DNA of 64,000 bases from contig NC_092672.1 of NCBI RefSeq assembly GCF_964355755.1, positions 18,675,237-18,739,236 of the forward strand. Reading direction: 5' to 3'. The notes under the pieces are model-generated. The model had not been told where the DNA came from and made no database searches. It saw only the letters and a list, made by a program, of their open reading frames with translations. This document shows, in pieces, positions 25,959 through 61,075 of this stretch; position 1 is the stretch's first letter; the number at the start of each line of letters is the position of its first letter. Made by a program: the position numbers and the translations under genes. Origin of the DNA: Antedon mediterranea (taxonomy: Eukaryota > Animalia > Echinodermata).

Positions 25959-27362
25959 TTATCTCATTGTATTAGATCTACTTGTGGCAGCATATATGTA
26001 ATGATTACTTTGTATTTCTAAATACATGGCATCAACCTCTTTATCATCTGGTGCCTGAGCAGCAAATGATCTTCTCCAGATTGTGGCATCTCTTGTGCGA
26101 GGTAAAGGTAACGTCATTCTATCGCGAGGTTCAAAGTACACTTCAGGTTGATGTACTATTGTTTTAGTTTGATTTGTTGTGATGTTTTTTGAACATAAAC
26201 AATAATAATAAACTGGAATCATAACGATGATTACTAATAAGACTACACAAGCAACAATGATAATGACGATGACGTCAGTAGATAATCCTGAAGATGTTTC
26301 TTTATTTAATGTGTCAATTCCACGTGATTTATTATTTTCATTATCGTCAATAATTACAGAATCTTTAGCTAATGAAACTGTAACATCGTTTTGTGTATCA
26401 GATTGTATCGTTAACGTAACACTTGTTGATGAACTTCCAATTCGATTTTCAGCTGTGCACGTGATCACAGTTCCATCCTGTTTCATTGTAGGATTATACA
26501 ACATTAATATGTGTCCAGTATTATCAATGTTGTATTCTTTGTTGTCGAGTGGGGGAAGAGTTAACCACGTATAACGAGTAACTGCAGGATTAGCGGTAGT
26601 GTCACAAATAAAGAAAGCTTGCTTACCGGCAGATATCAAACCTGTTTGAGGAATGCTAACTCTTGGCTTGTAATATATTGTCAGTGGTTGCGTTGTACAA
26701 TTTCTACTAAGATCAGGAATTTGTACATTTGTCATTGAACACACAGCTTTATTTCCATTTAAATCAGGATTAGCAATTAATCTCTTTTGTAATCTTGCAG
26801 TTTCTCCATCAATTATTTCAACAACATGTGTAGCGCCATCATTCCATCGTAATGTAACTGGCGGTTCTGTATACTCAGAAGCGCAGAAAAGCATGACGTC
26901 ATCACCTTCTGTGTAAACATCCTTAGATGACGTACATAATGGATATTTCTCATGAGGAATTTGCAATACATTTAAAAATGCTTTATCTGATTCTAGTAAA
27001 AGACTATTATTTCCAAATACGTCACACTGATAAAATCCCCGATCGCTATTCAAAACGCTATAGAAAAAAATATTGTAAATTATCCGCTTAGGAGGCCTAT
27101 TATTATCTTCATTTATTGTGACAATAAAGTTGTGTTGTATTTTCAAATCCTCTCGTACAATGTCATCAGTGGCAATGTATTCTCCATCTTTCTTCCATTT
27201 AAGTTTGTACTGGCTTGTAAAGGTTGTATCAAATTCTACAATGCAAATTAACGAAGCTGCTCTTTTTGCTCTTACTGTTGAATTTGATGGATGTCCGTCA
27301 AATAGAAGACTATTCGTCAAATTCACAAAAAGGACAATAGTAGTACACAATATTGATAACAT
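25959..27362 (-). CDS. IgSF receptor A1 (SP-V-Ig-Ig-TM-tail), intronless CDS; V type a
   Basis: Signal peptide; V-set C..W..DRGFYQC; two more Cys-paired Ig domains; TM DVIVIIIVACVVLLVIIVMIPVYYY; 467 aa. Confidence 0.92.
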   Translation of the reverse strand: MLSILCTTIVLFVNLTNSLLFDGHPSNSTVRAKRAASLICIVEFDTTFTSQYKLKWKKDGEYIATDDIVREDLKIQHNFIVTINEDNNRPPKRIIYNIFFYSVLNSDRGFYQCDVFGNNSLLLESDKAFLNVLQIPHEKYPLCTSSKDVYTEGDDVMLFCASEYTEPPVTLRWNDGATHVVEIIDGETARLQKRLIANPDLNGNKAVCSMTNVQIPDLSRNCTTQPLTIYYKPRVSIPQTGLISAGKQAFFICDTTANPAVTRYTWLTLPPLDNKEYNIDNTGHILMLYNPTMKQDGTVITCTAENRIGSSSTSVTLTIQSDTQNDVTVSLAKDSVIIDDNENNKSRGIDTLNKETSSGLSTDVIVIIIVACVVLLVIIVMIPVYYYCLCSKNITTNQTKTIVHQPEVYFEPRDRMTLPLPRTRDATIWRRSFAAQAPDDKEVDAMYLEIQSNHYIYAATSRSNTMR

Positions 27363-27628
27363 TTTGATTAATAAACTCGATTTTTTAAGTTACATTCTTC
27401 CAGATAAATTATTATTTACTACATTTCGAAAAAATATATTGTTCTCCAAAAGGAAAATTACTTTTTCAATAATGCAGATATTTAACGTTAATACATCAGT
27501 GGTATATGTCCAAACAAATTGATGGTTATGTTTCGCGTTTAAAGGAAACCTACAAAAACAAATTGTATAAGCCGAATTAAGCATTTATGTTTCATAATAT
27601 ATGAGATTGAAATGTATGCGAGAAAATG

Positions 27629-29023
27629 TTATCGCATTGTATTAGATCTACTTGTGGCAGCATATATATAATGATTACTTTGTATTTCTAAATACATGGC
27701 ATCAACCTCTTTATCATCTGGTGCCTGAGCAGCAAACGATCTTCTCCAGATTGTGGCATCTCTTGTGCGAGGTAAAGGTAACGTCATTCTATCGCGAGGT
27801 TCAAAGTACACTTCAGGTTGATGTACTATTGTTGTAGTTTGATTTGTTGTGATGTTTCTTGAACATAAACAATAATAATAAACTGGAATCATAACGATGA
27901 TTACTAATAAAACTACACAGGCAACAATGATAATGACGATGACGTCAGTAGATAATCCCGAAGATATTTCTTTACTTGCAGTTTTATTACCAAGTGATTT
28001 ATTATTTTCATTATAACCAATAATTACAGAATCTTTAGCTGTTGAAACTGTAACATCTTTTTGTGTATCAGATTGTATCGATAACGTAACACTTGTTGAT
28101 GAACTTCCAATTCGATTTTCAGCTGTGCACGTGATTACAGTTCCATCCTGTTTCATTGTGGGATTATACAACATTAATATGTGTCCAGTATTATCAATGT
28201 TGTATTCAGTTTTGTTGAGTGGTGGAAGAGTTAACCATGTATAAATAGTAACTGCAGGATTAGCGGTAGTGTCACAAATGAAGAAAGCTTGCTTACCAGC
28301 AGATATCAAACCTGTTTGAGGAATGCTAACTCTTGGTTTGTAATATATTGTTAGTGGTTGCGTTGTGCAATTTCTATTAAGATCAGGAATGTGTTCATTT
28401 GTCATTGAACACACAGCTTTATATCTATTTAAATCAGGATTAGCAATTAACCTTTTTTGTAATCTTGCGGTTTCTCCATCAACTATTTCAACAACATGTG
28501 TAGCGCCATCATTCCATCGTAATGTTACTGGCGGTTCTGTATACTCAGAAACGCAGAAAAGCATGACGTCATCACCTTCTGTGTAAACATCCTTAGATGC
28601 TGTACATAATGGATATTCATCGCCAGGAATTTGTATTACATCAAAAAATGCTTTATTTGACTCAAGTACAAGAGTGTTATTTTCAAATACGTCACATTGA
28701 TAAAATCCACGATCGCTATTCCAAACACTATTGAACATAAGATTATACGTAATAGTCCCGGTGTTTCTACTCACATCAACAACAAAATGATTTGAATTTT
28801 CCAAATCTTCTCTTATTTTATCTTCAGTGGCAATATATCCATTGTCATTTTTCTTCCATCTTATCTTGTATTGGTATTCAAGACTAAGTTGTGTTTTTAA
28901 AATACAAATTAACGAGCTAGTTTCTTTTACGTTAGATGTAGAGTTTCTGGGATGGTAATCGAAAGACAAACAGCGTGCAAGTTGAAACAATACTACTTCA
29001 AACAATACTACAACAATCTTCAT
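27629..29023 (-). CDS. IgSF receptor A2; V type b
   Basis: Same architecture, 464 aa. Confidence 0.92.
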   Translation of the reverse strand: MKIVVVLFEVVLFQLARCLSFDYHPRNSTSNVKETSSLICILKTQLSLEYQYKIRWKKNDNGYIATEDKIREDLENSNHFVVDVSRNTGTITYNLMFNSVWNSDRGFYQCDVFENNTLVLESNKAFFDVIQIPGDEYPLCTASKDVYTEGDDVMLFCVSEYTEPPVTLRWNDGATHVVEIVDGETARLQKRLIANPDLNRYKAVCSMTNEHIPDLNRNCTTQPLTIYYKPRVSIPQTGLISAGKQAFFICDTTANPAVTIYTWLTLPPLNKTEYNIDNTGHILMLYNPTMKQDGTVITCTAENRIGSSSTSVTLSIQSDTQKDVTVSTAKDSVIIGYNENNKSLGNKTASKEISSGLSTDVIVIIIVACVVLLVIIVMIPVYYYCLCSRNITTNQTTTIVHQPEVYFEPRDRMTLPLPRTRDATIWRRSFAAQAPDDKEVDAMYLEIQSNHYIYAATSRSNTMR

Positions 29024-29491: not shown

Positions 29492-30883
29492 TCATCTCAT
29501 TGTATTAGATCTACTTGTGGCAGCATAAATGTAATGATTACTTTGTATTTCTAAGTACATGGCATCAACCTCTTTATCGTCTGGTGCCTGAGCAGCAAAC
29601 GATCTTCTCCAGATTGTGGCATCTCTTGTGCGAGGTAAAGGTAACGTCATTCTATCGCGAGGTTCAAAGTACACTTCAGGTTGATGTACTATTGTTGTAG
29701 TTTGATTTGTTGTGATGTTTTTTGAACATAAACAATAATAATAAACTGGAATCATAACGATGATTACTAATAAGACTACACAGGCAACAATGATAATGAC
29801 GATGACGTCAGTAGATAATCCTGGAGATATTTCTTTACTTGCAGTTTTATTACTAAGTGATTTATTATTTTCATTATAATCAATAATTACAGAATCTTTA
29901 GCTGTTGAAACTGTGACATCGTTTTGTGTATCAGATTGTATCGTTAACGTAACACTTGTTGATGAACTTCCAATTCGATTTTCAGCTGTGCACGTGATTA
30001 CAGTTCCATCAAGTTTCATTGTTGGATTAGACAACATAAATATGTGTCCAGTATTATCAATGTTGTATTCAGTTTTGTCGAGTGGTGGAAGAGTTAACCA
30101 TGTATAAATGGTAACTGTAGGATTAGCGGTAGTGTCACAAATAAAGAAACCTTGCTTACCAGCAGATATCAAACCTGTTTGAGGAATGCTAACTCTTGGT
30201 TTGTAATATATTGTCAGTGGTTGCGTTGTACAATTTCTATTAAGATCAGGAATGTGTTCATTTGTCATTGAACACACAGATTTATATCCATTTAAATCAG
30301 GATTAGCAATTAATCTCTTTTGTAATCTTGCACTTTCTCCATCAACTATTTCAACAACATGTGTAGCGCCATCATTCCATCGTAACGTTACCGGAGGTTC
30401 TGTATACTCAGAAACGCAGAAAAGCATGACGTCATCACCTTCTGTGTAAACGTCTTTAGATTCTGTACATAATGGATATTTATCATCAGGAATTTGTATT
30501 ACCTCTAAAAATGCTTTATTTGACTCCAGTACAAGACTGCTATTTTCAAATACATCACACTGATAAAATTCACGATCACTATTCCAAATACTTATGAATA
30601 TCAGATCAAATTTAATTCTGTTATTGATTCTGTTAATAGTCACTACAAAATGGCGTTTATCGTCAATGTCTTCTCGTAAATTTCTGTTTGTAGCTATGTA
30701 TTCCTTGTTTTTCTTCCATTTCAAATCATAATTGCTTTTATCAGAACCTTTAAGTTCAATAATACAAACAAGCGAAACTGTCTCTTTTACATTAGCCGTG
30801 ATGTTAAAAGGATGTTCATAAAACTGTAGACTATTAACTACATTAAAGAAGTAGCTGAAAATAATAATAAAAATTCGTTTCAT
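29492..30883 (-). CDS. IgSF receptor A3; V type c (start taken at MKRIF)
   Basis: Same architecture; ATG at 30883 directly precedes the signal peptide. Confidence 0.92.
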   Translation of the reverse strand: MKRIFIIIFSYFFNVVNSLQFYEHPFNITANVKETVSLVCIIELKGSDKSNYDLKWKKNKEYIATNRNLREDIDDKRHFVVTINRINNRIKFDLIFISIWNSDREFYQCDVFENSSLVLESNKAFLEVIQIPDDKYPLCTESKDVYTEGDDVMLFCVSEYTEPPVTLRWNDGATHVVEIVDGESARLQKRLIANPDLNGYKSVCSMTNEHIPDLNRNCTTQPLTIYYKPRVSIPQTGLISAGKQGFFICDTTANPTVTIYTWLTLPPLDKTEYNIDNTGHIFMLSNPTMKLDGTVITCTAENRIGSSSTSVTLTIQSDTQNDVTVSTAKDSVIIDYNENNKSLSNKTASKEISPGLSTDVIVIIIVACVVLLVIIVMIPVYYYCLCSKNITTNQTTTIVHQPEVYFEPRDRMTLPLPRTRDATIWRRSFAAQAPDDKEVDAMYLEIQSNHYIYAATSRSNTMR

Positions 30884-31167
30884 TCTGGCTGAACTGGCAA
30901 TTTGAAATGTTAAAAATCTTCTTGAATAAACACCTTCCAGCACATAACGTATTAAAGACAAACGCTTCTTTAATGACTACCTTCAATGAAAAAAATATTC
31001 AACAAGCTATACGTACTTGACTCCATTACACAGCTTTCCAAAATGTCCTATAAAATTCAATTTTATGTTTCGCGTTTTGACAAAACCGTTTATTTCAGAA
31101 TTCAAAGATCATTAGAAAGTGTTATTTGTTTAAGAATATTAAAATATCACAATTCCTCTTGAACGTT

Positions 31168-32538
31168 CTATCTCATTGTGTTAGATCTACTGGTGGCAGC
31201 ATAAATGTAGTGATTACTTTGTATTTCCAAGTACATTGCATCAACCTCTTTATCATCTGGTGCTTGAGCAGCAAATGATCTTCTCCAGATTGTGGCATCT
31301 CTTGTGCGAGGTAAAGGTAACGTCATTCTATCGCGAGGTTCAAAGTACACTTCAGGTTGATGTACTATTGTTGTAGTTTGATTTGTTGTGATGTTTCTTG
31401 AACATAAACAATAATAATAAACTGGAATCATAACGATGATTACTAATAAAACTACACAAGCAACAATGATAATGACGATGACGTCAGTAGATAATCCTGA
31501 CGACGTTTCTTTATTTACAGTGTTATTCCCACGTGATTTATTGTTTGTATTATAATCAATAATTACAGAATCTTGAGCTGATGTAACTGTATCAGATTGT
31601 ATCGTTAACGTAACACTCTTTGATGAAGTTCCAATTCGATTTTCAGCTGTGCACGTGATTACAGTTCCATCCTGTTTCATTGTAGGATTATACAACATAA
31701 ATATATGTCCAGTATTATCAATGTTGTATTCAGTTTTGTCGAGTGGTGGAAGAGTTAACCATGTATAAATAGTAACTGCAGGATTAGCGGTAGTGTCACA
31801 AATAAAGAAAGCTTGCTTACCGGCAGATATCAAACCTGTTTGAGGAATGCTAACTCTTGGTTTGTAATATATTGTCAGTGGTTGCGTTGTGCAATTTCTA
31901 TTAAGATCAGAAATTTGTACATTTGTCATTGAACATACATCTTTATATCCATTTAAATCAGGATTAGCAATTAATCTCTTTTGTAATCTTGCAGTTTCTC
32001 CATCAACTATTTCAACAACATGTGTAGCGCCATCATTCCATCGTAATGTTACTGGCGGTTCTGTATACTCAGAAACGCAGAAAAGCATGACGTCATCACC
32101 TTCTGTGTAAACATCATTCGATGCTGTACATAATGGATATTTATCATCAGGAATTTGTATTACATCCAAAAATGCTTTATTTGACTCAAGTACAACGACG
32201 TTACTTTCAAATATGTCGCATTGGTAAATTCCACGATCACTGTTCCATACACTAATGAACACAAGGTTGAAAGTTATTTCCAAAATGCTTCTACTTACAG
32301 TGACAATAAAATGACTGGTATCTACTAGGTCATCTCGAATGTCCCCATTAGTGGCTATATATTCTTCGTCTTTCTTCCATTTTATATCATATTGTCTTTT
32401 ATTGTTTGTCTCATATTCAGCAATACAAGTTAGCGAAACTGTTCCCATTGCTTCAATTGTTACATTCAATGGTTGTTTATCAAATACAAGAGAATTTGAA
32501 GAACGAAGCAAAACTGTAATTATCATTAACAATAGCAT
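31168..32538 (-). CDS. IgSF receptor A4; V type d
   Basis: Same architecture, 456 aa, shortened stalk. Confidence 0.92.
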   Translation of the reverse strand: MLLLMIITVLLRSSNSLVFDKQPLNVTIEAMGTVSLTCIAEYETNNKRQYDIKWKKDEEYIATNGDIRDDLVDTSHFIVTVSRSILEITFNLVFISVWNSDRGIYQCDIFESNVVVLESNKAFLDVIQIPDDKYPLCTASNDVYTEGDDVMLFCVSEYTEPPVTLRWNDGATHVVEIVDGETARLQKRLIANPDLNGYKDVCSMTNVQISDLNRNCTTQPLTIYYKPRVSIPQTGLISAGKQAFFICDTTANPAVTIYTWLTLPPLDKTEYNIDNTGHIFMLYNPTMKQDGTVITCTAENRIGTSSKSVTLTIQSDTVTSAQDSVIIDYNTNNKSRGNNTVNKETSSGLSTDVIVIIIVACVVLLVIIVMIPVYYYCLCSRNITTNQTTTIVHQPEVYFEPRDRMTLPLPRTRDATIWRRSFAAQAPDDKEVDAMYLEIQSNHYIYAATSRSNTMR

Positions 32539-32799
32539 CTTGACTACCTTAGTCTATACAATCAATGTAAACTATTATATAATGAATGCATTATTACAGG
32601 TGTAATATATTGCAATATAGTATAGCCATCGAAGTAGACATTTTCTTGCCGGGTTTGAAAACACATTGGCACAGCAATTACAATAGCTCTATGTTATGCT
32701 AGATTAATGTCCATTTAAAATAAAAATTGTGTTTAACGTTTTACAAAAATGGTATTTATCAAAAGAAATAGCATACCAATTTAAATTCATAATAACGTA

Positions 32800-34194
32800 T
32801 TATCTCATTGTATTAGATCTACTTGTGGCAGCATATATGTAATGATTACTCTGTATTTCTAAATACATGGCATCAACCTCTCTATCGTCTGGTGCCTGAG
32901 CAGCAAACGATCTTCTCCAGATTGTGGCATCTCTTGTGCGAGGTAAAGGTAACGTCATTCTGTCGCGAGGTTCAAAGTACACTTCAGGTTGATGTACTAT
33001 TGTTTTTGTTTGATTTCTTGTGATGTTTCTTGAACATAAACAATAATAATAAACTGGAATCATAACGATGATTACTAATGAAACTACACAAGCAACAATG
33101 ATAATGACGATGACGTCAGTAGATAATCCTGTAGATGTTTCTTTATTTACAGTGTTATTTCCACGTGATTTATTATTTCCATTATAATCAATAATTACAG
33201 AATCTTGAGCTGATGTAACTGTAACATCATTTTGTGTATCAGATTGTATCGTTAACGTAACACTCGTTGATGAACTTCCAATTTGATTTTCAGCTGTGCA
33301 CGTGATTACAATTCCATCATGTTTCATTGTGGGATTATACAACATTAATATGTGTCCAGTATTATCAATGTTGTATTCTTTGTTGTCGAATGGTGGAAGA
33401 GTTAACCATGTATAACGAGTAACTGCAGGATTAGCGGTAGTGTCACAAATGAAGAAAGCTTGCTTACCAGCGGATATCAAACCTGTTTGAGGAGGAATGC
33501 TAACTCTTGGTTTGTAATATATTGTCAGTGGTTGCGTTGTACAATTTCTATTAAGATCAGGAATGTGTTCATTTGTCATTGAACACACAGCTTTATATCC
33601 ATTTAAATCAGGATTAGCAATTAACCTCTTTTGTAATCTTGCAGTTTCTCCATCAACTATTTCAACAACATGTGTAGCGCCATCATTCCAACGTAACGTT
33701 ACTGGAGGTTCTGTATACTCAGAAGCGCAGAAAAGCATGACGTCATCACCTTCTGTGTAAACATCCTTAGATGCAGTACATAATGGGTATTTATCTCCCG
33801 GAATTTGTATTACATCAAGAAATGCTTTATTTGACTCCAGTACAAGTATATCCTTTTCAACAACATCACATTGATAAAATGCTCGATCACTGTTCCTTAT
33901 CCTTATAAAGACAAGATTAAAATTAATACGGACATCGGTCTTGCTATAGGTTACAACAAAATGGCTTGTATCTCTAATGTCCTCTCGTATGTTGCCATTT
34001 GTAGCAATATATTTTTCGTTTTTCTTCCACTTCATCTCATATTCATGTATGCCCAATGAGTGTAGTTCTACGCTGCAAATCAACGAAACTGTTCCCTCTG
34101 CTTTGACAGTAAAGTTGGATGGATGGTCATAGAACTGCAGACTATTTATTAGATAAAATAGATAGCTAAATATAGTGATAGCAAATAATTTCAT
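32800..34194 (-). CDS. IgSF receptor A5; V type e
   Basis: Same architecture, 464 aa. Confidence 0.92.
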   Translation of the reverse strand: MKLFAITIFSYLFYLINSLQFYDHPSNFTVKAEGTVSLICSVELHSLGIHEYEMKWKKNEKYIATNGNIREDIRDTSHFVVTYSKTDVRINFNLVFIRIRNSDRAFYQCDVVEKDILVLESNKAFLDVIQIPGDKYPLCTASKDVYTEGDDVMLFCASEYTEPPVTLRWNDGATHVVEIVDGETARLQKRLIANPDLNGYKAVCSMTNEHIPDLNRNCTTQPLTIYYKPRVSIPPQTGLISAGKQAFFICDTTANPAVTRYTWLTLPPFDNKEYNIDNTGHILMLYNPTMKHDGIVITCTAENQIGSSSTSVTLTIQSDTQNDVTVTSAQDSVIIDYNGNNKSRGNNTVNKETSTGLSTDVIVIIIVACVVSLVIIVMIPVYYYCLCSRNITRNQTKTIVHQPEVYFEPRDRMTLPLPRTRDATIWRRSFAAQAPDDREVDAMYLEIQSNHYIYAATSRSNTMR

Positions 34195-34428
34195 CTTTAA
34201 TAAAACTGGTCAACTTGATCGTGATATTCGTCTTCAATAATCATATCTCAGGAAGTAATACTGTTTAAGAAAATGTCCAACTACCTACATCATTTTTAGC
34301 TGATAGAGAAATCATATTATTGACAAAACACATCTACAGTATTCTATCTGTCCTATACAATTAAAAACTGTGTTTCCCGTTTCTTTAAAACACTAATTTC
34401 AATAGAATTCCACAATTGCAATACCAAT

Positions 34429-35823
34429 CTATCTCATTGTATTAGATCTACTTGTGGCAGCATATATGTAGTGATTGCTTTGTATTTCCAAGTACATTGC
34501 ATCAACCTCTTTATCATCTGGTGCCTGAGCAGCAAATGATCTTCTCCAGATTGTGGCATCTCTTGTGCGAGGTAAAGGTAACGTCATTCTATCGCGAGGT
34601 TCAAAGTACACTTCAGGTTGATGTACTATTGTTGTAGTTTGATTTGTTGTGATGTTTCTTGAACATAAACAATAATAATAAACTGGAATCATAACGATGA
34701 TTACTAATAAAACTACACAAGCAACAATGATAATGACGATGACGTCAGTAGATAATCCTGACGACGTTTCTTTACTTATAGTGTTATTCCCACGTGATTT
34801 ATTGTTTTTATTATAATCAATAATTACAGTATTTTGAACTGATTTAACTGTGACATCGTTTTGTGTATCAGATTGTATCGTTAACGTAAAACTTGTTGAT
34901 GAACTTCCAATTTGATTTTCAGCTGTGCACGTGATTACAGTTCCATCCTGTTTCATTGTGGGATTATATAACATTAATATATGTCCAGTATTATCAATGT
35001 TGTATTCAATATTGTCGAGTGGTGGAAGAGTTAACCATGTATAACGAGTAACTGCAGGATTAGCGGTAGTGTCACAAATAAAGAAAGCTTGCTTACCGGC
35101 AGATATCAAACCTGTTTGAGGAGGAATGCTAACTCTTGGTTTGTAATATATTGTCAGTGGTTGCGTTGTACAATTTCTATTAAGATCAGGAATGTGTTCA
35201 TTTGTCATTGAACACATAGCTTTATATCCATTTAAATCAGGATTAGCAATTAACCTCTTTTGTAATCTTGCAGTTTCTCCATGAACTATTTCAACAACAT
35301 GTGTAGCGCCATCATTCCATCGTAATGTTACTGGTGGTTCTGTATACTCAGAAGCGCAGAAAAGCATGACGTCATCACCTTCTGTGTAAACATCCTGAGA
35401 TGCTGTACATAATGGGTATTTACCTCCAGGAATTTGTATTACATCAAAAAATGCTTTATTTGACTCCAGTACAAGAGTATTTTTTCCAAATACGTCACAT
35501 TGATACAATCCACGATCACTATTCCAAATACTTATGAACATAAGAATAAATTTAATTTGGTTATTTATTCTCCGCATAGTCACTACAAAATGACTCTTAT
35601 CGTTAATATCTTCTCGTACATGTCCGTCTGTAGCTATGTATTCCTCATTTTTCTTCCATTTCAACTCATAATTTCCTTTATCAAAATCTTTTAATTTTAA
35701 AATACAATCAAGCGAAGCTGTTTCTTTTACATTAACAGTGTTGTTAAATGGATGTTTATCAAACCGCAGACTACAAATGAGACAGAATAAATAACAAAAT
35801 ACAGTAATAGAAAATAGTTTCAT
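34429..35823 (-). CDS. IgSF receptor A6; V type c-like
   Basis: Same architecture, 464 aa. Confidence 0.92.
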   Translation of the reverse strand: MKLFSITVFCYLFCLICSLRFDKHPFNNTVNVKETASLDCILKLKDFDKGNYELKWKKNEEYIATDGHVREDINDKSHFVVTMRRINNQIKFILMFISIWNSDRGLYQCDVFGKNTLVLESNKAFFDVIQIPGGKYPLCTASQDVYTEGDDVMLFCASEYTEPPVTLRWNDGATHVVEIVHGETARLQKRLIANPDLNGYKAMCSMTNEHIPDLNRNCTTQPLTIYYKPRVSIPPQTGLISAGKQAFFICDTTANPAVTRYTWLTLPPLDNIEYNIDNTGHILMLYNPTMKQDGTVITCTAENQIGSSSTSFTLTIQSDTQNDVTVKSVQNTVIIDYNKNNKSRGNNTISKETSSGLSTDVIVIIIVACVVLLVIIVMIPVYYYCLCSRNITTNQTTTIVHQPEVYFEPRDRMTLPLPRTRDATIWRRSFAAQAPDDKEVDAMYLEIQSNHYIYAATSRSNTMR

Positions 35824-36088
35824 CTTGGCTGAATTTGAAATACCTTTTTAAATAAACATTTTGAAGCACATAAAGGCAACTAGTTCCTTAGCAATTACCT
35901 TCCTCATTGTCACATAATAAAGCAAGAACATTTACTTATCGACGCTACTTTACACAGCTATTCCTAATGTCCTACTTAATACGATATTATGTTTAGCGTT
36001 TTGCTAAAACAAGTTTATTTCAGAATACACACACCAAATAAAAAAAACACTATTGACAACCATTTTAAGCTAATACCATAAAAACGTT

Positions 36089-37480
36089 CTATCTCATTGT
36101 ATTACATCTACTTGTGGCAGCATAGATGTAATGATTACTTTGTATTTCCAAGTACATGGCATCAACCTCTTTATCATCTGGTGCTTGAGCAGCAAATGAT
36201 CTTCTCCAGATTGTGGCATCTCTTGTGCGAGGTAAAGGTAACGTCATTCTATCGCGAGGTTCAAAGTACACTTCAGGTTGATGTACTATTGTTGTAGTTT
36301 GATTTGTTGTGATGTTTTTTGAACATAAACAATAATAATAAACTGGAATCATAACGATGATTACTAATAAAACTACACAAGCAACAATGATAATGACGAT
36401 GACGTCAGTAGATAATCCTGTAGATGTTTCTTTATTGACAGTGTTATTTCCACGTGATTGATTATTTTCATTATAATTAATAATTACAGAATCTTGAGCT
36501 GATGTAACTCTAACATCTTTTTGTGTATCAGATTGTATCGATAACGTAACACTCGTTGATGAACTTCCAATTCGATTTTCAGCTGTGCACGTGACCACAG
36601 TTCCATCCTGTTTCATTGTGGGATTAGACAACATAAATATGTGTCCAGTATTATCAATGTTGTATTCAGTTTTGTCGAGTGGGGGAAGAGTTAACCATGT
36701 GTAACGAGTAACTGCCGGATTAGCGGTAGTCTCACAAATAAAGAAACCTTGCTTACCAGCAGATATCAAACCTGTTTGACGAATGCTAACTCTTGGTTTG
36801 TAATATATTGTCAGTGGTTGCGTTGTACAATTTCTATTAAGATCAGGAATGTGTTCATTTGTCATTGAACACACAGATTTATATCCATTTAAATCAGGAT
36901 CAGCAATTAATCTCTTTTGTAATCTTGCACTTTCTCCATCAACTATTTCAACAACATGTGTAGCGCCATCATTCCATCGTAACGTTACCGGAGGTTCTGT
37001 ATACTCAGAAACGCAGAAAAGCATTACGTCATCACCTTCTGTGTAAACGTCTTTAGATTCTGTACATAATGGATATTTATCATCAGGAATTTGTATTACA
37101 TCTAAAAATGCTTTATTTGACTCTAGTACAAGACTGCTATTTTCAAATACATCACATTGGTAAAATCCCCGATCGCTATTCAAAACCCCATAGAAAAAAA
37201 TATTGTAAATAATTTGCATATTATCTTCATTTATTGTGACAATAAAGTTTTGCGATGTTTTCAAATCCTCTCGTAAAACGTCGTTAATGGCAATGTATTC
37301 TCCATCTTTCTTCCATTTAAGTTTGTACTGGCTTGTAATCGTTGTATCAAATTCTACAATGCAAATTAACAAAACTGCTCCTTTAGCTTTTACAGTTGAA
37401 TTTGATGGTTGTTTATCAAACACAAGACAATTCGTAATGTTAAAAAACAGAAAAATATAACTAAGCACTGTTAATAGCAT
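36089..37480 (-). CDS. IgSF receptor A7; V type a-like
   Basis: Same architecture, 463 aa. Confidence 0.92.
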   Translation of the reverse strand: MLLTVLSYIFLFFNITNCLVFDKQPSNSTVKAKGAVLLICIVEFDTTITSQYKLKWKKDGEYIAINDVLREDLKTSQNFIVTINEDNMQIIYNIFFYGVLNSDRGFYQCDVFENSSLVLESNKAFLDVIQIPDDKYPLCTESKDVYTEGDDVMLFCVSEYTEPPVTLRWNDGATHVVEIVDGESARLQKRLIADPDLNGYKSVCSMTNEHIPDLNRNCTTQPLTIYYKPRVSIRQTGLISAGKQGFFICETTANPAVTRYTWLTLPPLDKTEYNIDNTGHIFMLSNPTMKQDGTVVTCTAENRIGSSSTSVTLSIQSDTQKDVRVTSAQDSVIINYNENNQSRGNNTVNKETSTGLSTDVIVIIIVACVVLLVIIVMIPVYYYCLCSKNITTNQTTTIVHQPEVYFEPRDRMTLPLPRTRDATIWRRSFAAQAPDDKEVDAMYLEIQSNHYIYAATSRCNTMR

Positions 37481-37758
37481 CTTGATTAATATTCTTGATT
37501 TTTAAGATGGCTACAGTTCTCTAGATCAATAGTTACTTACTGTACTTCGAAAGTAGTAGTAGTAGTTTTCGCAAAGCAACGTTACAATGGAAACGACAAT
37601 GAATATAGTTATTATATTCTTTATCAATGGGCAATGTCCAAATGAATTGGTGGTTGTGTTTCACGTTCTCAAAAAACGTTACATAAACAGATTATATCAC
37701 CAGAAATAAGTATTGCTGTTGACACATTATATGAGATAGAAATGTATGCGGGAAAGTG

Positions 37759-39153
37759 TTACCGCATTGTATTACATCTACTTGTGGCAGCATATATGTA
37801 ATGATTACTTTGTATTTCCAAGTACATGGCATCGACCTCTTTATCATCTGGTGCCTGAGCAGCAAACGATCTTCTCCAGATTGTGGCATCTCTTGTGCGA
37901 GGTAACGGTAACGTCATTCTATCGCGAGGTTCAAAATACACTTCAGGTTGACGTACTATTGTTGTAGTTTGATTTGTTGTGATGTTTCTTGAACATAAAC
38001 AATAATAATAAACTGGAATCATAACGATGATTACTAATAAAACTACACAAGCAACAATGATAATGACGATGACGTCAGTAGATAATCCTGTAGATGTTTC
38101 TTTATTGACAGTGTTATTTCCACGTGATTGATTATTTTCATTATAATCAATAATTACAGAATCTTTAGCTGTTGAAACTGTGACATCATTTTGTGTATCA
38201 GATTGTATCGTTAACGTAACACTTGTTGATGAACTTCCAATTTGATTTTCAGCTGTGCACGTGATTACAGTTCCATCCTGTTTCATTGTGGGATTATACA
38301 ACATTAATATGTGTCCAGTATTATCAATGTTGTATTCAGTTTTGTCGAGTGGTGGAAGAGTTAACCATGTATAAATAGTAACTGCAGGGTTAGCGGTAGT
38401 GTCACAAATGAAGAAAGCTTGCTTACCGGCAGATATCAAACCTGTTTGAGGAATGCTAACTCTTGGTTTGTAATATATTGTCAGTGGTTGCGTTGTACAA
38501 TTTCTATTAAGATCAGGAATTTGTATATTTGTCATTGAACATACAACTTTATATCCAATTAATTCAGGATTAGCAATTAATCTCTTTTGTAATCTTGCAG
38601 TTTCTCCATCAACTATCTCAACAATATGTGTAGCGCCATCATTCCATCGTAATGTTACTGGCGGTTCTGTATACTCAGAAATACAGAAAAGCATGACGTC
38701 ATCACCTTCTGTGTAAACATCCTGAGATGCTGTACATAATGGGTATTTATCTCCAGGAATTTGTATTACATCAAAAAATGCTTTATTTGACTCCAGTACA
38801 AGAGTATTATTTTCAAATATTTCACATTGATAAAATCCACGATCGCTATTCCAAACACTATTGAACATAAGATTATACGTAATAGTCCCGGTGTTTCTAC
38901 TCACATCGACAAAAAAATGATTTAAATTTTTCAAATCTTCTCTTATTTTATCTTCAGTGGCAATATATCCATTGCCATTTTTCTTCCATCTTATCTTGTA
39001 TTGGTATTCAAGACTAAGTTGTGTTTTTAAAATACAAATTAACGAGCTAGTTTCTTTTACGTTAGATGTAGAGTTTCTAGGATGGTAATCGAAAGACAAA
39101 CAGCGTGCAAGTTGAAACAATACTACTTCAAACAATACTACAACAATCTTCAT
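37759..39153 (-). CDS. IgSF receptor A8; V type b
   Basis: Same architecture, 464 aa. Confidence 0.92.
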   Translation of the reverse strand: MKIVVVLFEVVLFQLARCLSFDYHPRNSTSNVKETSSLICILKTQLSLEYQYKIRWKKNGNGYIATEDKIREDLKNLNHFFVDVSRNTGTITYNLMFNSVWNSDRGFYQCEIFENNTLVLESNKAFFDVIQIPGDKYPLCTASQDVYTEGDDVMLFCISEYTEPPVTLRWNDGATHIVEIVDGETARLQKRLIANPELIGYKVVCSMTNIQIPDLNRNCTTQPLTIYYKPRVSIPQTGLISAGKQAFFICDTTANPAVTIYTWLTLPPLDKTEYNIDNTGHILMLYNPTMKQDGTVITCTAENQIGSSSTSVTLTIQSDTQNDVTVSTAKDSVIIDYNENNQSRGNNTVNKETSTGLSTDVIVIIIVACVVLLVIIVMIPVYYYCLCSRNITTNQTTTIVRQPEVYFEPRDRMTLPLPRTRDATIWRRSFAAQAPDDKEVDAMYLEIQSNHYIYAATSRCNTMR

Positions 39154-39601
39154 TGTTTATGTTATTATCGTATTAGAAATGATGTTTTACACTATGTTGT
39201 CTCGAAACAATCTCTGATAATATTCCTAAAATGAACAGCAAACGACTGCGAATTTATAATTTTAGAAACATGTCCAGACAAATATATGATTTTGGTACTC
39301 GTTTTGAGGAAACTATATAAGTAAGAATCTACATCAGTGTCACCTTTCATTAATCTTACTTATGTAAAAGTATGATAGACTTGCAAAATGATTTAAGAAA
39401 CTTTTTACTTCACTGATTGCTGGAAAATGTTACGTTATTGAATTAGGCATAACTCATCGTAAATGATAGGAAAATATAAAAGGATATTATTTCTCATTAT
39501 AATATTATCTACTTCTATAGGTAGTACCATATTAATTTATACATCAACATTGTGAAAGTTAAGGTTGTACTCTCTGAAAAAGGTAATAGGAAAGAGGCTT
39601 A

Positions 39602-40996
39602 TTAGCTAATTGTATTAGATCTACTTGTGGCAGCATATATGTAATGATTACTCTGTATTTCCAAATACATGGCATCAACCTCTTTATCATCTGGTGCCTG
39701 AGCAGCAAATGATCTTCTCCAGATTGTGGCATCTCTTGTGCGAGGTAAAGGTAACGTCATTCTATCGCGAGGTTCAAAGTACACTTCAGGTTGATGTACT
39801 ATTGTTGTAGTTTGATTTGTTGTGATATTTCTTGAACATAAACAATAATAATAAATTGGAATCATAACGATGATTACTAATAAAACTACACAGGCAACAA
39901 TGATAATGACGATGACGTCAGTAGATAATCCCGAAGATGTTTCTTTATTTAATGTGTCATTTCCACGTGATTTATTATTTTCATTATGATCAATAATTAC
40001 AGAATCTTTAGCTTTTGAAACTGTAACATCGTTTTGTGTATCAAATTGTATCATTAACGTAACACTCGTTGATGAATTTCCAATTCGATTTACAGCTGTG
40101 CACGTGATTACAGTTCCATCATGTTTCATTGTTGGATTAGACAACATAAATATGTGTCCAGTATTATCAATGTTGTATTCAGTTTTTTCGAGTGGTGGAA
40201 GAGTTAACCATGTATAAATAGTAACTGCAGGATTAGCGGTAGTGTCACAAATAAAGAAAGCTTGCTTACCGGCAGATATCAAACTTTTTTGAGGAATGCT
40301 AACTCTTGGTTTGTAATATATTGTCAGTGGTTGCGTTGTACAATTTCTATTAAGATCAGGAATGTGTTCATTTGTCATTGAACACACAGCTTTATATCCA
40401 TTTAAATCAGGATTAGCGATTAACCTTTTTTGTAATCTTGCAGTTTCTCCATGAACTATTTCAACAACATGTGTAGCGCCATCATTCCATCGTAATGTTA
40501 CCGGAGGTTCTGTATACTCAGAAGCGCAGAAAAGCATGACGTCATCACCTTCTGTGTAAACATCCTGAGATGCTGTACATAATGGGTATTTATCTCCAGG
40601 AATTTGTATTACATCAAAAAATGCTTTATTTGACTTCAGTACAAGAATATCATTTTTAAATACGTCACATTGATAAAATCCACGATCGCTATTCCAAATA
40701 CTTATGAATATCAGATTATACGTAATAGTCCCGATGTTTCTACTTACATCAACAAAAAAATGATTTAAATTTTCCAAATCTTCTCTTATTTTATCTTCAG
40801 TGGCAATATATTCATTGTCATTTTTCTTCCATCTTATCTTGTATTGGTATTCAAGACTAGGTTGTGTTTTTAAAATACAAATTAACGAGCTAGTTTCTTT
40901 TACGTTAGATGTAGAGTTTCTTGGGTGGTAATCGAAAGACAAACAGCGTGCAAGTTGAAACAATACTACTTCGAACAATACTACAACAATCTTCAT
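39602..40996 (-). CDS. IgSF receptor A9; V type b with a type-c patch
   Basis: Same architecture, 464 aa; C-terminus NTIS. Confidence 0.92.
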   Translation of the reverse strand: MKIVVVLFEVVLFQLARCLSFDYHPRNSTSNVKETSSLICILKTQPSLEYQYKIRWKKNDNEYIATEDKIREDLENLNHFFVDVSRNIGTITYNLIFISIWNSDRGFYQCDVFKNDILVLKSNKAFFDVIQIPGDKYPLCTASQDVYTEGDDVMLFCASEYTEPPVTLRWNDGATHVVEIVHGETARLQKRLIANPDLNGYKAVCSMTNEHIPDLNRNCTTQPLTIYYKPRVSIPQKSLISAGKQAFFICDTTANPAVTIYTWLTLPPLEKTEYNIDNTGHIFMLSNPTMKHDGTVITCTAVNRIGNSSTSVTLMIQFDTQNDVTVSKAKDSVIIDHNENNKSRGNDTLNKETSSGLSTDVIVIIIVACVVLLVIIVMIPIYYYCLCSRNITTNQTTTIVHQPEVYFEPRDRMTLPLPRTRDATIWRRSFAAQAPDDKEVDAMYLEIQSNHYIYAATSRSNTIS

Positions 40997-41454: not shown

Positions 41455-42831
41455 TTATCTCATTGTATTAGATCTACTTGTGGCAGCATATATGTAATGA
41501 TTACTCTGTATTTCCAAATACATGGCATCAACCTCTTTATCGTCTGGTGCCTGAGCAGCAAATGATCTTCTCCAGATTGTGGCATCTCTTGTGCGAGGTA
41601 AAGGTAACGTCATTCTATCGCGAGGTTCAAAGTACACTTCAGGTTGATGTACTATTGTTGTAGTTTGATTTGTTGTGATGTTTCTTGAACATAAACAATA
41701 ATAATAAACTGGAATCATAACGATGATTACTAATAAAACTACACAAGCAACAATGATAATGACGATGACGTCAGTAGATAATCCTGTAGATGTTTCTTTA
41801 TTTACAGTGTTATTTCCACGTGATTTATTATTTCCATTATAATTAATAATTACAGTATCTTGAGCTGATGTAACTGTATCAGATTGTATCGTTAACGTAA
41901 CATTCTTTGATGAAGTTCCAATTCGATTTTCAGCTGTGCACGTGATTACAGTTCCATCCTGTTTCATTGTGGGATTAGACAACATTAATATGTGTCCAGT
42001 ATTATCAATGTTGTATTCAGTTTTGTCGAGTGGTGGAAGAGTTAACCATGTATAACGAGTAACTGCAGGATTAGCGGTAGTGTCACAAATAAAGAAAGCT
42101 TGCTTACCAGCGGATATCAAACCTGTTTGAGGAATGCAAACTCTTGGCTTGTAATATATTGTCAGTGGTTGCGTTATACAAGTTCTATTAAGATCAGGAA
42201 TGTGTTCATTTGTCATTGAGCATACAGCTTTATATCCATTTAAATCAGGATTAGCAATTAACCTCTTTTGTAATCTTGCAGTTTCTCCATGAACTATTTC
42301 AACAACATGTGTAGCGCCATCATTCCATCGTAATGTTACTGCCGGTTCTGTATACTCAGAAACACAGAAAAGCATGACGTCATCACCTTCTGTGTAAACA
42401 TCCTTAGATGCAGTACATAATGGGTATTTATCTCCAGGAATTTGTATTACATCCAAAAATGCTTTTGTTGACGCCAGTACAATATTTTCAGTTTTGAAAA
42501 CATCACATTGATAAAATCCACGATCAGTATTCCAAACACTTACAAAGACAAGATCGAATTTAATTCGTGTACTACTTCTTCGTATTGTAACAATAAAATG
42601 ACTTGAATCTTTTAGATTATCCACTATATTTCCATTAGTAGCAATATATTCTTCGTCTTTCTTCCACTTCATATCATATTGTATTTCGTCGTTTGTTTTA
42701 TATTCTACAATACATGTAAGTGAAACTGCTCCTTCTGCTTGTACGGTTGAATTTAATGGATGCTCATCAAATAAAAGACAGCTTGTAAAACGAAATAAAA
42801 GAACATTAACAGCAAACACAAACCTTAACAT
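41455..42831 (-). CDS. IgSF receptor A10; V type d-like (start taken at MLRFV)
   Basis: Same architecture; shortened stalk as in A4. Confidence 0.92.
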   Translation of the reverse strand: MLRFVFAVNVLLFRFTSCLLFDEHPLNSTVQAEGAVSLTCIVEYKTNDEIQYDMKWKKDEEYIATNGNIVDNLKDSSHFIVTIRRSSTRIKFDLVFVSVWNTDRGFYQCDVFKTENIVLASTKAFLDVIQIPGDKYPLCTASKDVYTEGDDVMLFCVSEYTEPAVTLRWNDGATHVVEIVHGETARLQKRLIANPDLNGYKAVCSMTNEHIPDLNRTCITQPLTIYYKPRVCIPQTGLISAGKQAFFICDTTANPAVTRYTWLTLPPLDKTEYNIDNTGHILMLSNPTMKQDGTVITCTAENRIGTSSKNVTLTIQSDTVTSAQDTVIINYNGNNKSRGNNTVNKETSTGLSTDVIVIIIVACVVLLVIIVMIPVYYYCLCSRNITTNQTTTIVHQPEVYFEPRDRMTLPLPRTRDATIWRRSFAAQAPDDKEVDAMYLEIQSNHYIYAATSRSNTMR

Positions 42832-43069
42832 TCTTGAATAATTTTGAAAATACGTATTATACATAATTAGTATCATTCCCATATAAACGTATACTTTTGT
42901 AGTATATTGTCGAAACGTTTAAATATTGAGTAAATGTTTAATCATTACCATAGCACACGTATTAATAATTGAACTTGTCAGAAACATGCTCAGCTGAATT
43001 TGTTATTATGTTACGCGTTCTTAATTATAACAAAAAACAGAAACATATTATGCACAGTAACTTACTTAG

Positions 43070-57490: not shown

Positions 57491-58879
57491 CTAAAGTGTG
57501 TTTTGATTGTTTCTGTCTCCAATGTACGTATATCCTTGTACATCAAGATCTTCAGGAACTTGAGAAGCAAATGAATGTCTCCAGTGACCATAATGTCCAG
57601 TACTTGGTAATCGAGGTAAAGATCGATCATAAAGACCACTATTTGAAACTCGATCTCTGGTATCATAGTACACAGTAGGTTGATATATCTCTCTACCAGA
57701 TGAATCAGTAGCAGTCCTTGTCTTACAGAAGCATTGATAATAAACAGGAATGATGACAACAACTACAACAATAATGACGACTAATATGATAATAATGATC
57801 ACAACATACAAAGAGATTTCCCTTTTGTCTCCTAAATCATCTGATAAAAGCATTTTATTTTCATCTTCATAGTCTGATTCGGAATTTCCACCCGTATTGC
57901 CATGATGTACATTACTATTCCGTTTCTCTTCACTAATGTATAATACAACTGTATGTGACGTTTCACCTACCACATTTTTACCTGTACATGTTATCTTAGT
58001 TCCATTGTGCTTGCGTGTGGGTTGCAAAAGACGGAATACTTGTCCATCATTTTCATATTCATTGACATCTAGCATTGGCAGAGAAATCCATTCATATTGT
58101 TTCACCGGTGGGTTTGCAAATGATTGACAAAATAGTATAGCATCAGATCCTGTATATATAACATCAGTATGTTGAATTTTTATGACTGGTTTGTAATAAA
58201 TATTTAAATTGTCGACTACACAGAAAGCAACATATGGCTGTTGTTTTACATGCGAAGATTGTTTACAAGTAAATGCATATTTTTTTTCAGCTTTTTTAGC
58301 ATTAAATGTCAAATTTGTATAAAAAAATTTTCCCCACACGTTACTTCGTACACCACTTGTAATTATCGTACCATTTTCATGTATCCAATTAAGTTCAACT
58401 GGTGGTTTGATAAGTTCACTTACGCATGATAATGTTATAGTAGATCCAACAATAAAACTGTCTCCAGAACCAATACACTGTGGGTAATCAGAAGATGGTA
58501 TTTGAAGTACCGTAAGATGCGCCGTGCCAGATCTTATGTTTTCATCTTCTTGTAGTCTACAGTGATAATCGTCTTCGTCTGTTAATGTAACATCTGATAT
58601 CACCAATGAATACATACGCATTTCACCAGAAGGAACTTTCAAGGAAGACATGGACATTCGGGCATTTTCATCCTTTATATTTTCATTTAGATCTGCTAAC
58701 TTACTACGTCCTTTCCACCAAGAAACGGCATTAACTACATCTTCAGAAATAAAACAAGAAAGAACTGCTTGTTTTCCTTCTATTACAGATACATCTTCAA
58801 GTTTTCCAACAAAACTAACACAACTAACGCCTAAAATGTGTGTCCACAGAAACAGTATAGTTACAATAATGTTTCCCAT
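57491..58879 (-). CDS. IgSF receptor B1 (SP-V-Ig-Ig-TM-tail), intronless CDS
   Basis: V-set LSC..WWK..DEDDYHC; TM LYVVIIIIILVVIIVVVVVIIPVYY; tail homologous to cluster A; 462 aa. Confidence 0.92.
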   Translation of the reverse strand: MGNIIVTILFLWTHILGVSCVSFVGKLEDVSVIEGKQAVLSCFISEDVVNAVSWWKGRSKLADLNENIKDENARMSMSSLKVPSGEMRMYSLVISDVTLTDEDDYHCRLQEDENIRSGTAHLTVLQIPSSDYPQCIGSGDSFIVGSTITLSCVSELIKPPVELNWIHENGTIITSGVRSNVWGKFFYTNLTFNAKKAEKKYAFTCKQSSHVKQQPYVAFCVVDNLNIYYKPVIKIQHTDVIYTGSDAILFCQSFANPPVKQYEWISLPMLDVNEYENDGQVFRLLQPTRKHNGTKITCTGKNVVGETSHTVVLYISEEKRNSNVHHGNTGGNSESDYEDENKMLLSDDLGDKREISLYVVIIIIILVVIIVVVVVIIPVYYQCFCKTRTATDSSGREIYQPTVYYDTRDRVSNSGLYDRSLPRLPSTGHYGHWRHSFASQVPEDLDVQGYTYIGDRNNQNTL

Positions 58880-59686: not shown

Positions 59687-61075
59687 CTAAAGTGTATTCT
59701 GATTGTTCCTATCTTCGATGTATGTATATCCTTGTGCATCAAGATCTTCAGGAACTTGAGAAGCAAAGGAATGTCTCCAGTGACCATAATGTCCAGTACT
59801 TGGTAATCGAGGTAAAGATCGATCATAAAGACCACTATTAGAAACTCGATCTCTGGTATCATAGTACACAGTAGGTTGATATATCTCTCTACCAGATGAA
59901 TCAGTAGCAGTCCTTGTTTTACAGAAGCATTGATAATAAACAGGAATGATGACAACAACTACAACAATAATGACGACTAATATGATAATAATGATCACAA
60001 CATACAAAGAGATTTTCGTTTTGTCTTCTAAATCATCTGATAAAAGCATATTATTTTCATCTTCATAGTCTGATTTGGAATTTTCACCTGTATTGCCATG
60101 ATGTACATTACTATTTTGTTTCCCGTCACTAATGTATAATACAACTGTATGTGACGTTTCACCTACCACATTTTTGCCTGTACATGTTATCTTAGTTCCA
60201 TTGTGCTTGCGTGTGGGTTGCAAAAGACGGAATACTTGTCCATCATTTTCATATTCATTGACATCTAGCATTGGCTGAGAAATCCATTCATATTGTTTCA
60301 CCGGTGGGTTTGAAAATGATTGACAAAATAGTATAGCATCAGATCCTGTATATATAACATCAGTATGTTGAATTTTTATGACTGGTTTATAATAAATATT
60401 TAAATTGTCCACTACACAGAAAGCAACACCTGGCTGTTGTCTTACATGCGAAGATTGTTTACAAGTAAATGTATGTTTGTTGTCAGCTTTTTTAGCATTA
60501 AATGTGAAATTTGTATAAACAAATTTCCCCCACACGTTACTTCGTACATCACTTGTAATTATCGTACCATCATCATTTATCCAATTTAGTTCAACTGGTG
60601 GTTTGATAAACTCACTTACACATGATAATGTTATAGTAGATTCAACTATAAAACTGTCTCCAGAAACAATACACTGTGGGTAATCAGATGATGGTATTTG
60701 AAGTACCGCAAGATGCGCCGTGCCAGATCTTATGTTTTCATCTTCTTGTAGTCTACAGTGATAATCGCCTTCGTCTGTTAATGTAACATCTGATATCATC
60801 AACGAATACATACGCATTTCACTAGCAGGAACCTTCGAGGAAGACATGGACATTCTAGAGTCTTCATCAATTGTATTTACAGTTAGAGCTGCTAACTTAT
60901 CCAGTCCTTTCCACCAAGAAACGACATTAACTACATCTTCAGAAATAAAACAAGAAAGAACTGCTTGTTTTCCTTCTATCGCAGATACATCTTCGGGCTT
61001 TCCAACAAAACTAACACAACTAACGTCTAAAATGTTTGTCCACAGAAACAGTATAGTTACAATAATGGTTCCCAT
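59687..61075 (-). CDS. IgSF receptor B2, a recent duplicate of B1
   Basis: Close to B1 throughout; upstream flank also duplicated (58880-59350 vs 61076-61510). Confidence 0.92.
   Translation of the reverse strand: MGTIIVTILFLWTNILDVSCVSFVGKPEDVSAIEGKQAVLSCFISEDVVNVVSWWKGLDKLAALTVNTIDEDSRMSMSSSKVPASEMRMYSLMISDVTLTDEGDYHCRLQEDENIRSGTAHLAVLQIPSSDYPQCIVSGDSFIVESTITLSCVSEFIKPPVELNWINDDGTIITSDVRSNVWGKFVYTNFTFNAKKADNKHTFTCKQSSHVRQQPGVAFCVVDNLNIYYKPVIKIQHTDVIYTGSDAILFCQSFSNPPVKQYEWISQPMLDVNEYENDGQVFRLLQPTRKHNGTKITCTGKNVVGETSHTVVLYISDGKQNSNVHHGNTGENSKSDYEDENNMLLSDDLEDKTKISLYVVIIIIILVVIIVVVVVIIPVYYQCFCKTRTATDSSGREIYQPTVYYDTRDRVSNSGLYDRSLPRLPSTGHYGHWRHSFASQVPEDLDAQGYTYIEDRNNQNTL

Follow-up and report, generated by a model that had tools for sequence, protein, structure and literature searches.

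The ten tandem immunoglobulin-type genes that we call A1–A10 are very probably mosaics over their rear three quarters, which run from late in the V domain through the tail, produced by non-allelic recombination in the germline and most likely by gene conversion. Array A is thus a case of regional concerted evolution, in which conversion and double crossover are indistinguishable in these data. The mechanism is already known; the receptor family is seemingly undescribed. All ten crinoid genes are intact single open reading frames (ORFs) of 1.4 kb packed into 17 kb, each with a signal peptide (SP), an IgV, an IgC2 and a further Ig domain, a stalk, a transmembrane segment (TM) and a tail. "Intronless" here means an ORF without interruption, and the UTRs may contain introns. 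Within the window (the whole 64,000-nucleotide stretch that was analysed), the array spans 25959–42831, which is larger than the extent given in the first-pass annotation. The window also holds a second, paralogous cluster, B, with the same layout and a different boundary, as only its TM and tail are homogenised.

25959..27362 (-): A1, 467 aa, intronless SP-IgV-IgC2-Ig-stalk-TM-tail ORF, V type A1/A7
27629..29023 (-): A2, 464 aa, V type A2/A8/A9
29492..30883 (-): A3, 463 aa, V type A3/A6, probably received a tract from A7
31168..32538 (-): A4, 456 aa, 15-nt stalk deletion common to A4 and A10
32800..34194 (-): A5, 464 aa, extra Pro codon, as in A6
34429..35823 (-): A6, 464 aa, V type A3/A6
36089..37480 (-): A7, 463 aa, V type A1/A7
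37759..39153 (-): A8, 464 aa, V type A2/A8/A9
39602..40996 (-): A9, 464 aa, V type A2/A8/A9 with an A3-type patch
41455..42831 (-): A10, 458 aa
43079..43180 (-): A11, 3' remnant (tail only) of an eleventh copy, cut off by a decayed insertion that we take to be LINE-like from its motifs
27528..27540 (-): example of the upstream motif, AACG..AAAC(A)..GGACA-type
57491..58879 (-): B1, cluster B, layout as in array A
59687..61075 (-): B2, cluster B
61997..63364 (-): B3, ectodomain 46–66% identical in nt to B1/B2, TM and tail 96–99%
63866..64000 (-): B4, 3' end only, cluster B running on past the window edge

The upstream motif lies 150–200 nt before the ATG in 10/10 A genes, and a scan of both strands of the 64 kb gave 10 hits, one per gene, with a pattern that was fitted post hoc. 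In each gene it is a putative promoter element. The spacers between the genes measure 234–468 nt, and AATAAA is missing from most of them.

The front and rear of the A genes have diverged to very different degrees. In the constant part (aa 136–469), any pair of A genes is about 5.5% different regardless of V type, and constant-part distance is not predictable from V distance (rho 0.16, p=0.15). Synonymous difference falls from 0.58 in the V core through 0.32 in the V 3' third to 0.10 in the constant part, where it ranges from 0.058 to 0.141 across all 45 pairs. The V cores are old (median dS 1.3), and the V of A7 is 87.5% identical in nucleotides to that of A1 and 64–71% identical to the remaining V. 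Between A2 and A8, likeness is 97% in V, 94% in the spacer and 95% in the constant part; because their constant parts are less alike than their V, exchange scrambles recent duplicates too. It is highly improbable that this contrast arose without any exchange, through recent tandem duplication of one gene whose copies then came under fast positive selection in V and under purifying selection in the constant part. That account has in its favor that purifying selection is evident in the TM and tail, as indicated by a pN/pS of 0.11, and that the tip loops of V are highly variable (BC, C''D, and FG most of all). However, selection at the protein level cannot yield synonymous differences of 0.58 and 0.10 in the same ORFs, pN/pS in the V core is 0.53, and synonymous changes make up 10 of the 20 allele or orthologue changes listed in SP and V, which are a subset of all such changes. 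Exchange is moreover shown by PHI and by segment trees. Positive selection across V was rejected as such, with pN/pS below 1 in the V core and in close pairs.

For the constant part, PHI gave p=1e-4, with z=-7.6 against a minimum of -2.0 over 120 no-recombination simulations, and 47% of site pairs were incompatible, against a simulated maximum of 44%. Trees of V and constant segments conflict and are not congruent. In AU tests, which used trees picked from the data and are therefore liberal, V-core data rejected 6/6 other segment trees and Ig2 data likewise 6/6, and the V-core tree was not rejected by the V 3' third (p=0.08) or by Ig3 (p=0.06). The 291-nt window with the lowest mismatch (1 mismatch) was equalled in 6 of 200 no-recombination simulations. 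The earlier proposal of constant-part homogenisation through interlocus conversion or unequal crossover is therefore upheld by PHI, shared tracts, segment trees, the synonymous contrast and the comparison with Anneissia given below. The companion proposal, that V sub-segments are shuffled, holds from the end of strand E onward but not for the V core: exchange within V is confined to the last third (end of strand E, F, FG loop and G), and the core is without significant recombination (PHI p=0.13). None of 702 V-core triplets passes Bonferroni correction in a test whose smallest attainable p, with 4000 permutations (2.5e-4), exceeds the Bonferroni threshold; this floor was reached by whole-V triplets and by no V-core triplet. 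A derivation of the A6 signal peptide from A5 (triplet p=0.007) was rejected as non-significant among 704 triplets.

Only six shared tracts are globally significant:

30143..30559 (-): A3 side of the A3/A7 tract, F-strand Cys to the start of Ig3
36740..37156 (-): A7 side of the A3/A7 tract, junction with the A1-type V at about 37156
40689..40716 (-): A3-identical patch in A9, 28 nt, end of strand E and EF loop, partner 30579–30606
36319..36477 (-): A7/A8 identical tract, 159 nt, stalk/TM, partner 37989–38147, global p=0.007
29864..29975 (-): A3/A8 identical tract, 112 nt, partner 38131–38242, global p=0.007
35047..35428 (-): A6/A9 tract, 382 nt, 8 mismatches, partner 40220–40598, global p=0.004
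35434..35481 (-): A6/A8 identical tract, 48 nt, end of V, partner 38761–38808, global p=0.016

The first-pass annotation had pointed to four instances of patchwork, all of which are present in the sequence, with unequal evidential weight. A7 does combine an A1-type V with an A3-like downstream part, the match to A3 covering alignment aa 114–253 in a tract of about 420 nt with 5 mismatches (global permutation p=0.008–0.011). Likewise, the patch of A9 at 40691–40716 is identical to 30581–30606 and belongs to a full identical run of 28 nt (global p=0.011), inside which 5/5 sites that differ between A9 and A2 agree with A3. The Pro insertion ascribed to A5 and A6 is an extra CCT codon exclusive to these two genes, but the surrounding tract (162 nt, 1 mismatch, gap columns unscored; pairwise p=0.014) is only suggestive because its global p is 0.39. 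The SRCNTMR end said to unite A7 and A8 comes down to a single base: the common Cys is there, but the codons that follow differ, and because 4/4 Anneissia homologues also carry Cys at this position, it is probably ancestral and weak evidence of exchange. Sharing between neighbors, which the last two instances had implied, did not hold as a general effect, as adjacent pairs are 5.5% and non-adjacent pairs 5.4% different (Mantel rho -0.03, p=0.56).

Near-identical repeats can be collapsed or switched in assembly, and chimeras that arose in this way would find some support in the 94% likeness of the units and in one additional V, of A3/A6 type and absent from the window, that occurs at half depth in the same sample. 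We consider this origin extremely improbable. The A7 junction lies inside one X1 contig of the same sample (37127–37338, 0 differences), with overlapping X2 contigs covering it, and in a related organism, organism B, it lies inside one contig each of runs X6 and X8 (37094–37319, 4 differences). Four V-plus-spacer pieces of 439–683 nt also match contigs with 0 differences, and 10/10 ORFs are intact. This check covered the A7 junction and the four pieces; constant-part contigs, with depths several times that of a single copy, were left out of allelic conversion-tract calling owing to the collapse of paralogues in that region. The A7 chimera is thus not a mis-assembly, and because its junction is common to both organisms, it is not recent.

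That exchange is "ongoing," as the first-pass annotation had it, therefore gains indirect support from other observations but not from the A7 junction. One of these is the half-depth extra V, and the other is that organism B has its A3-type V on a different F–G segment. Depth steps of 51.3 and 138 match the depths of the contig concerned and so identify it; it departs from the A7/A3 sequence at 37133, and the next 30 nt differ, matching A9 at 29, A2 at 27 and the A3 of the window at 24 positions (by eye). From this one 30-nt loose contig end, A3 is likelier than A7 to be the recipient in the A3/A7 tract.

The contigs also bear on programmed or somatic diversification, in which body cells would recombine or convert V segments in the manner of chicken Ig or lamprey VLR. 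The V-type domain, variable tip loops and compact array would suit such a process, and the excerpted text of PMC6563789 reports somatic change in the SpTransformer genes of sea urchins. Here it is very unlikely. The A7 junction is inherited, since two organisms carry it, the ten genes are all complete, and the window holds neither a pseudogene donor pool nor separate segments. Microsatellites do not flank the array, and a search of the 64-kb window with an RSS consensus gave one weak hit, at 10295, and nothing RSS-like within the array or close to it.

Under germline exchange, conversion would copy tracts of ~30–400 nt among 1.6-kb repeat units, and unequal crossover would likely alter copy number. 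Exchange would start in the 94%-identical constant part, continue for some distance into V (strands G, F and E), and stop where identity drops to about 65%. Because it halts inside V, the V cores would escape homogenisation and persist as long-lived lineages, six in all, each tied to a signal peptide and an upstream spacer of its own, and the FG loop could pair anew with a different V core. Natural FG-loop variants occur between A1 and A7 and among A2, A8 and A9. The A genes are putative cell-surface recognition receptors with different tips and one common TM and tyrosine-bearing tail, which may serve in immunity, self-recognition or cell adhesion. A bolder and rather unlikely picture is an undescribed, protocadherin-like echinoderm recognition code with one promoter and one exon per IgV receptor. 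Conversion that spills from the shared stalk would in this picture join the FG loop, the equivalent of CDR3, to old V cores in new pairings and so give new germline binding specificities, and cells would each express a subset for self/non-self or cell-cell recognition.

The constant parts are 89–95% identical in amino acids within the array and 67–73% identical to four Anneissia homologues, three of which are full and are 83–87% alike among themselves. The V lineages are 48–60% alike within the array (A4/A10 67%) and 48–67% alike to the three full Anneissia V. Constant parts therefore group by species, with weak support in the protein tree (A clade 55/48; also 93/57), and the V tree, being unresolved, gave no one-to-one V orthology with Anneissia. 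The A genes belong to a wider, large echinoderm three-Ig family with a common tyrosine-bearing tail, present only under automatic names, with several homologues labelled "kin of IRRE-like" by NCBI. We found no earlier description of the array or the family in the literature searched, most subscription journals lying outside its scope. The A-gene motif AMYLEI departs from the ITIM consensus [ILVS]xYxx[ILV] (as in the excerpted text of PMC9546547), which is present at this place in 13/32 family representatives. The top sequence and fold matches among solved structures are three-Ig adhesion proteins (Nectin/Necl, DIP/IgLON and SYG); because fold-search identity is only 15–22%, we assign the genes to none of these families.

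The same regional pattern of homogenisation has been published for clustered protocadherins of fugu (PMC1852091, in excerpt). Its Pcdh2 subclusters likewise consist of large single exons in tandem, with a 3' part that regional gene conversion homogenises and N-terminal domains that escape; they have distinct consensus 3' parts, as clusters A and B do here, and lineage-specific homogenisation, as in array A. In contrast to protocadherins, array A has Ig domains and no cadherin repeats, and compared with Pcdh2 as excerpted, each A ORF bears the whole tail, with no shared constant exons seen, homogenisation is looser and patchy (94% versus over 99%), and the boundary is a gradient inside V. GC3 in the converted part is 0.22 versus 0.27, without the rise of fugu; such a rise, used in that text, is an accessory sign of conversion and no requirement.

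Among echinoderms, KirrelL and related Ig-TM proteins (PMC8903837, in excerpt) are, like the A genes, intronless with an SP-three-Ig-TM layout, and the spacing of the V/C2-junction motif is similar by eye. KirrelL is treated there as a single gene per species, and the published Anneissia KirrelL is clearly different, by eye, from the Anneissia homologues of array A; orthology of the A genes with Aj-KirrelL was rejected on a by-eye difference in sequence. SpTransformer (Sp185/333) genes, for which immune function has been shown (PMC3091723, in excerpt), also form tight clusters of small echinoderm genes with mosaic sequences, conversion and duplication have been proposed for them, and proximity is unlinked to similarity, as in array A. 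Unlike the A genes, they are non-Ig, with two exons and GA/GAT microsatellite flanks. Hydractinia Alr genes (excerpted text of PMC9546547) are similarly clustered invertebrate V-set Ig receptors with a TM and tyrosine-motif tails, but their domains, which include an Fn3-like one, are on separate exons, and divergence is greater in their tails than in their ectodomains, the reverse of array A.

Array A is an unusually clean case, with a measurable gradient of exchange that fades inside the V domain and a cluster nearby with a different boundary. Together, the two clusters permit a direct test of whether homogenisation stops through divergence alone or through selection on V. The finding further draws attention to an echinoderm Ig receptor family that is large and has a conserved, putative signalling tail; few polymorphic Ig recognition receptors are known from echinoderms. 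If V-specific binding is true, the A genes would be candidates for immune or self-recognition receptors in the earliest-branching living echinoderm class.

The array of paralogous genes and its neighbours in the window are as follows.

12-1931, window start: an unassigned 640-aa open reading frame (ORF)
6075-17302, plus strand: ARMC5-like gene with ARM_ARMC5 and BTB domains
17800-22170, between ARMC5 and the array: 4.4-kb minisatellite in which a 38-40-nt unit recurs ~112 times (96% matches)
25959-42831, minus strand: A1-A10, ten uninterrupted ORFs of 456-467 aa, head to tail with gaps of 234-468 nt
A11: an eleventh copy, left only as a tail remnant
43180-45000, plus strand: decayed, apparently LINE-like reverse-transcriptase fragments adjoining the A11 remnant
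57491-64000: cluster B, B1-B3 plus a B4 truncated where the window stops; it belongs to the same family as A

The product of each A reading frame has a signal peptide, three Ig domains, a stalk, and a transmembrane (TM) helix, and its tail contains four tyrosines. Pfam matches are weak for domain 1 (V-set) and for domain 2 of A2 (CD80-like C2), the C2 match being stronger in the B genes. The closest homologues belong to Anneissia japonica, a feather star. All ten spacers share a motif 150-200 nt upstream of the ATG, in keeping with a separate promoter for every gene; the pattern was derived post hoc. AATAAA occurs in two of the ten spacers of the array (25959-43065), and read-through or 3'-coterminal transcripts across the spacers are possible. 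Among the pieces listed from X5, a sequencing run only guessed to be RNA, contigs cross the spacers, with depth peaking behind A1.

Recombination acts in the constant part of the A genes (amino acids 136-469). The PHI test was significant (p=1e-4, 82 informative sites). Of 120 recombination-free simulations on the fitted tree, 1.7% gave a significant PHI and not one approached the observed z (-7.6). The first-pass annotation had named congruent trees across domains as evidence against exchange, and the segment trees instead conflict. The V core (V without its last third) groups A1+A7, A3+A6, and A2+A8+A9, Ig2 groups A3+A7 (support 100), and the stalk groups A2+A3 (99), A1+A9 (90), and A4+A6 (97). 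Trees of other segments were rejected in 6/6 cases by the V core and by Ig2, 5/6 by the stalk and by the 3' third of V, 4/6 by Ig3, and 3/6 by the TM-tail segment.

Synonymous sites differ least in the constant part, at a level of 0.10 that is even across all 45 pairs, against 0.32 in the 3' third of V and 0.58 in the V core. Compared with Anneissia, constant parts group by species, while the A V lineages are about as distant from each other as from Anneissia V domains. Counting against homogenisation, support for the A clade in this constant-part comparison is weak, and GC3 is not raised in the homogenised region. In the recent triplet A2/A8/A9, identity is alike in V (94-97%), spacer (94-95%), and constant part (94-95%), which argues that exchange draws all copies to a level common to the array, and that this level does not follow descent. 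Array position has no effect on similarity.

All four mosaic features of the first-pass annotation are in the sequence, with unequal weight by our own GENECONV-like permutation test, corrected over 45 gene pairs. Two remain significant after correction: the A3-like stretch downstream of the A1-type V in A7, and the A9 patch identical to A3. The proline insertion shared by A5 and A6 is present, its significance being pairwise only; the common end of A7 and A8 is also present, yet it is a single base, with the same Cys in 4/4 Anneissia homologues.

Mis-assembly had been raised against such chimeras, and for A7 the chimera stands. In X1, a run of the probable source sample, the junction lies within a single read-derived contig (37127-37338, 0 differences, depth 52) that breaks off 30 nt inside the stretch identical to A3, where merging of the graph would be expected to end it. 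The junction recurs with 4 differences in independent contigs of related organism B (runs X6 and X8) and is thus inherited, either older than the split from B or common to both. Somatic diversification as the maker of the chimeras is unsupported in these data and very improbable; germline interlocus conversion, with unequal crossover, very probably produces the patchwork, conversion rather than double crossover being the presumed process.

Figures for the contig comparisons (X1, X5, X6, X8) come from the pieces and difference rows listed. An A3-type gene of organism B, 95% alike over 710 nt, is without the A7-type segment, and of the 30 nt that follow in it, 29 agree with A9 (by eye). On the simplest reading, A7 would have overwritten A3 from the F strand onward in the window's lineage, and the A9 patch would have come from an older A3; alternatively, a later overwrite may have taken place in organism B. 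A third A3/A6-type V, on a 641-nt contig present also in X5, X6, and X8, has 25 differences/152 nt to A3 and 20/162 to A6; its X1 depth of 19, against 40-52 for A6 and A7, suggests haplotypes with different gene content. In contigs of organism B (X6, X8; window 31182 / 25873), an A1-like 3' flank adjoins the gene end lying upstream of the A3-type gene, hinting at a unit order different from the window's.

At aa 76-91, identity among six lineage representatives is 0.52-0.61; it has risen to 0.79 by aa 101 and to 0.93 by aa 141. On the predicted structural model, with strands assigned by us, the A9 patch takes in the last part of strand E plus the EF loop, and the A3/A7 tract runs from the F-strand cysteine through the FG loop and strand G. 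Recombination tests within the V core gave nothing significant. The proposed shuffling of V sub-segments therefore holds only for the E-F-G end, while the V cores are old lineages, and divergence there would act as a barrier. At the start of the A6 FG loop (35482-35506), two adjacent amino acids differ between the window and X5/organism B, toward the A2/A8 state.

The patchwork is real and well supported, and its mode of evolution is already known. Fugu protocadherin clusters (PMC1852091) likewise show regional conversion, although the A genes are not protocadherins; SpTransformer clusters (PMC3091723) also lack a proximity effect but have microsatellites absent from the A array; and Hydractinia Alr tails (PMC9546547) are the more divergent part, the reverse of the A array. 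Published crinoid KirrelL (PMC8903837), compared on its first 400 letters without tails, has the same layout and is a different protein. The literature searched held no description of the receptor family, and the solved structures that come nearest are those of generic three-Ig adhesion proteins.

Cluster B, ~35% identical in amino acids to A in the constant part, is a second case of homogenisation with a different boundary: in nucleotides, B3 matches B1/B2 at 46-66% in its old ectodomain and at 96-99% in TM and tail. A donor-like GTAAGT/GTAGGT word lies within a few bases after every B stop, and one is also found behind the A11 remnant; these transcripts may have an intron in the 3' UTR.

A full-library search returned 776 matches at E<=0.001. 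A Y-x-E-P-K/R-D-like tail motif is present in 32 of the 150 proteins scanned; in most of them W-x-R-S-x-x-x-Q-V and a distal Y-x-E-I come after it. An ITIM consensus occurs in 13 of the 32, against which AMYLEI of the A genes is non-canonical. The tail stretch S-x-G/A-x-Q-V resembles a motif that binds the dynein light chain LC8. Ten family proteins were looked up; the named ones belong to crinoids or sea urchin (Diadema) and carry automatic names, and two of the ten (P0064, P0073) are without the tail motif. Other subfamilies, among them P0009, P0010, P0012, and P0014, share this tail layout. An Anneissia contig, apparently that of the A homologues, carries P0009 and P0010, and loose contig ends among the pieces listed match a P0012-like tail, which together indicate more clusters beyond the window.

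The A genes would presumably act as receptors. Strands C (0.73) and C' (0.88) of V are conserved, and variation in V is greatest in the BC loop (identity 0.15), A' (0.37), C''-D (0.38), and FG (0.46); on the predicted model, this pattern would fit ligand contact at the tip.
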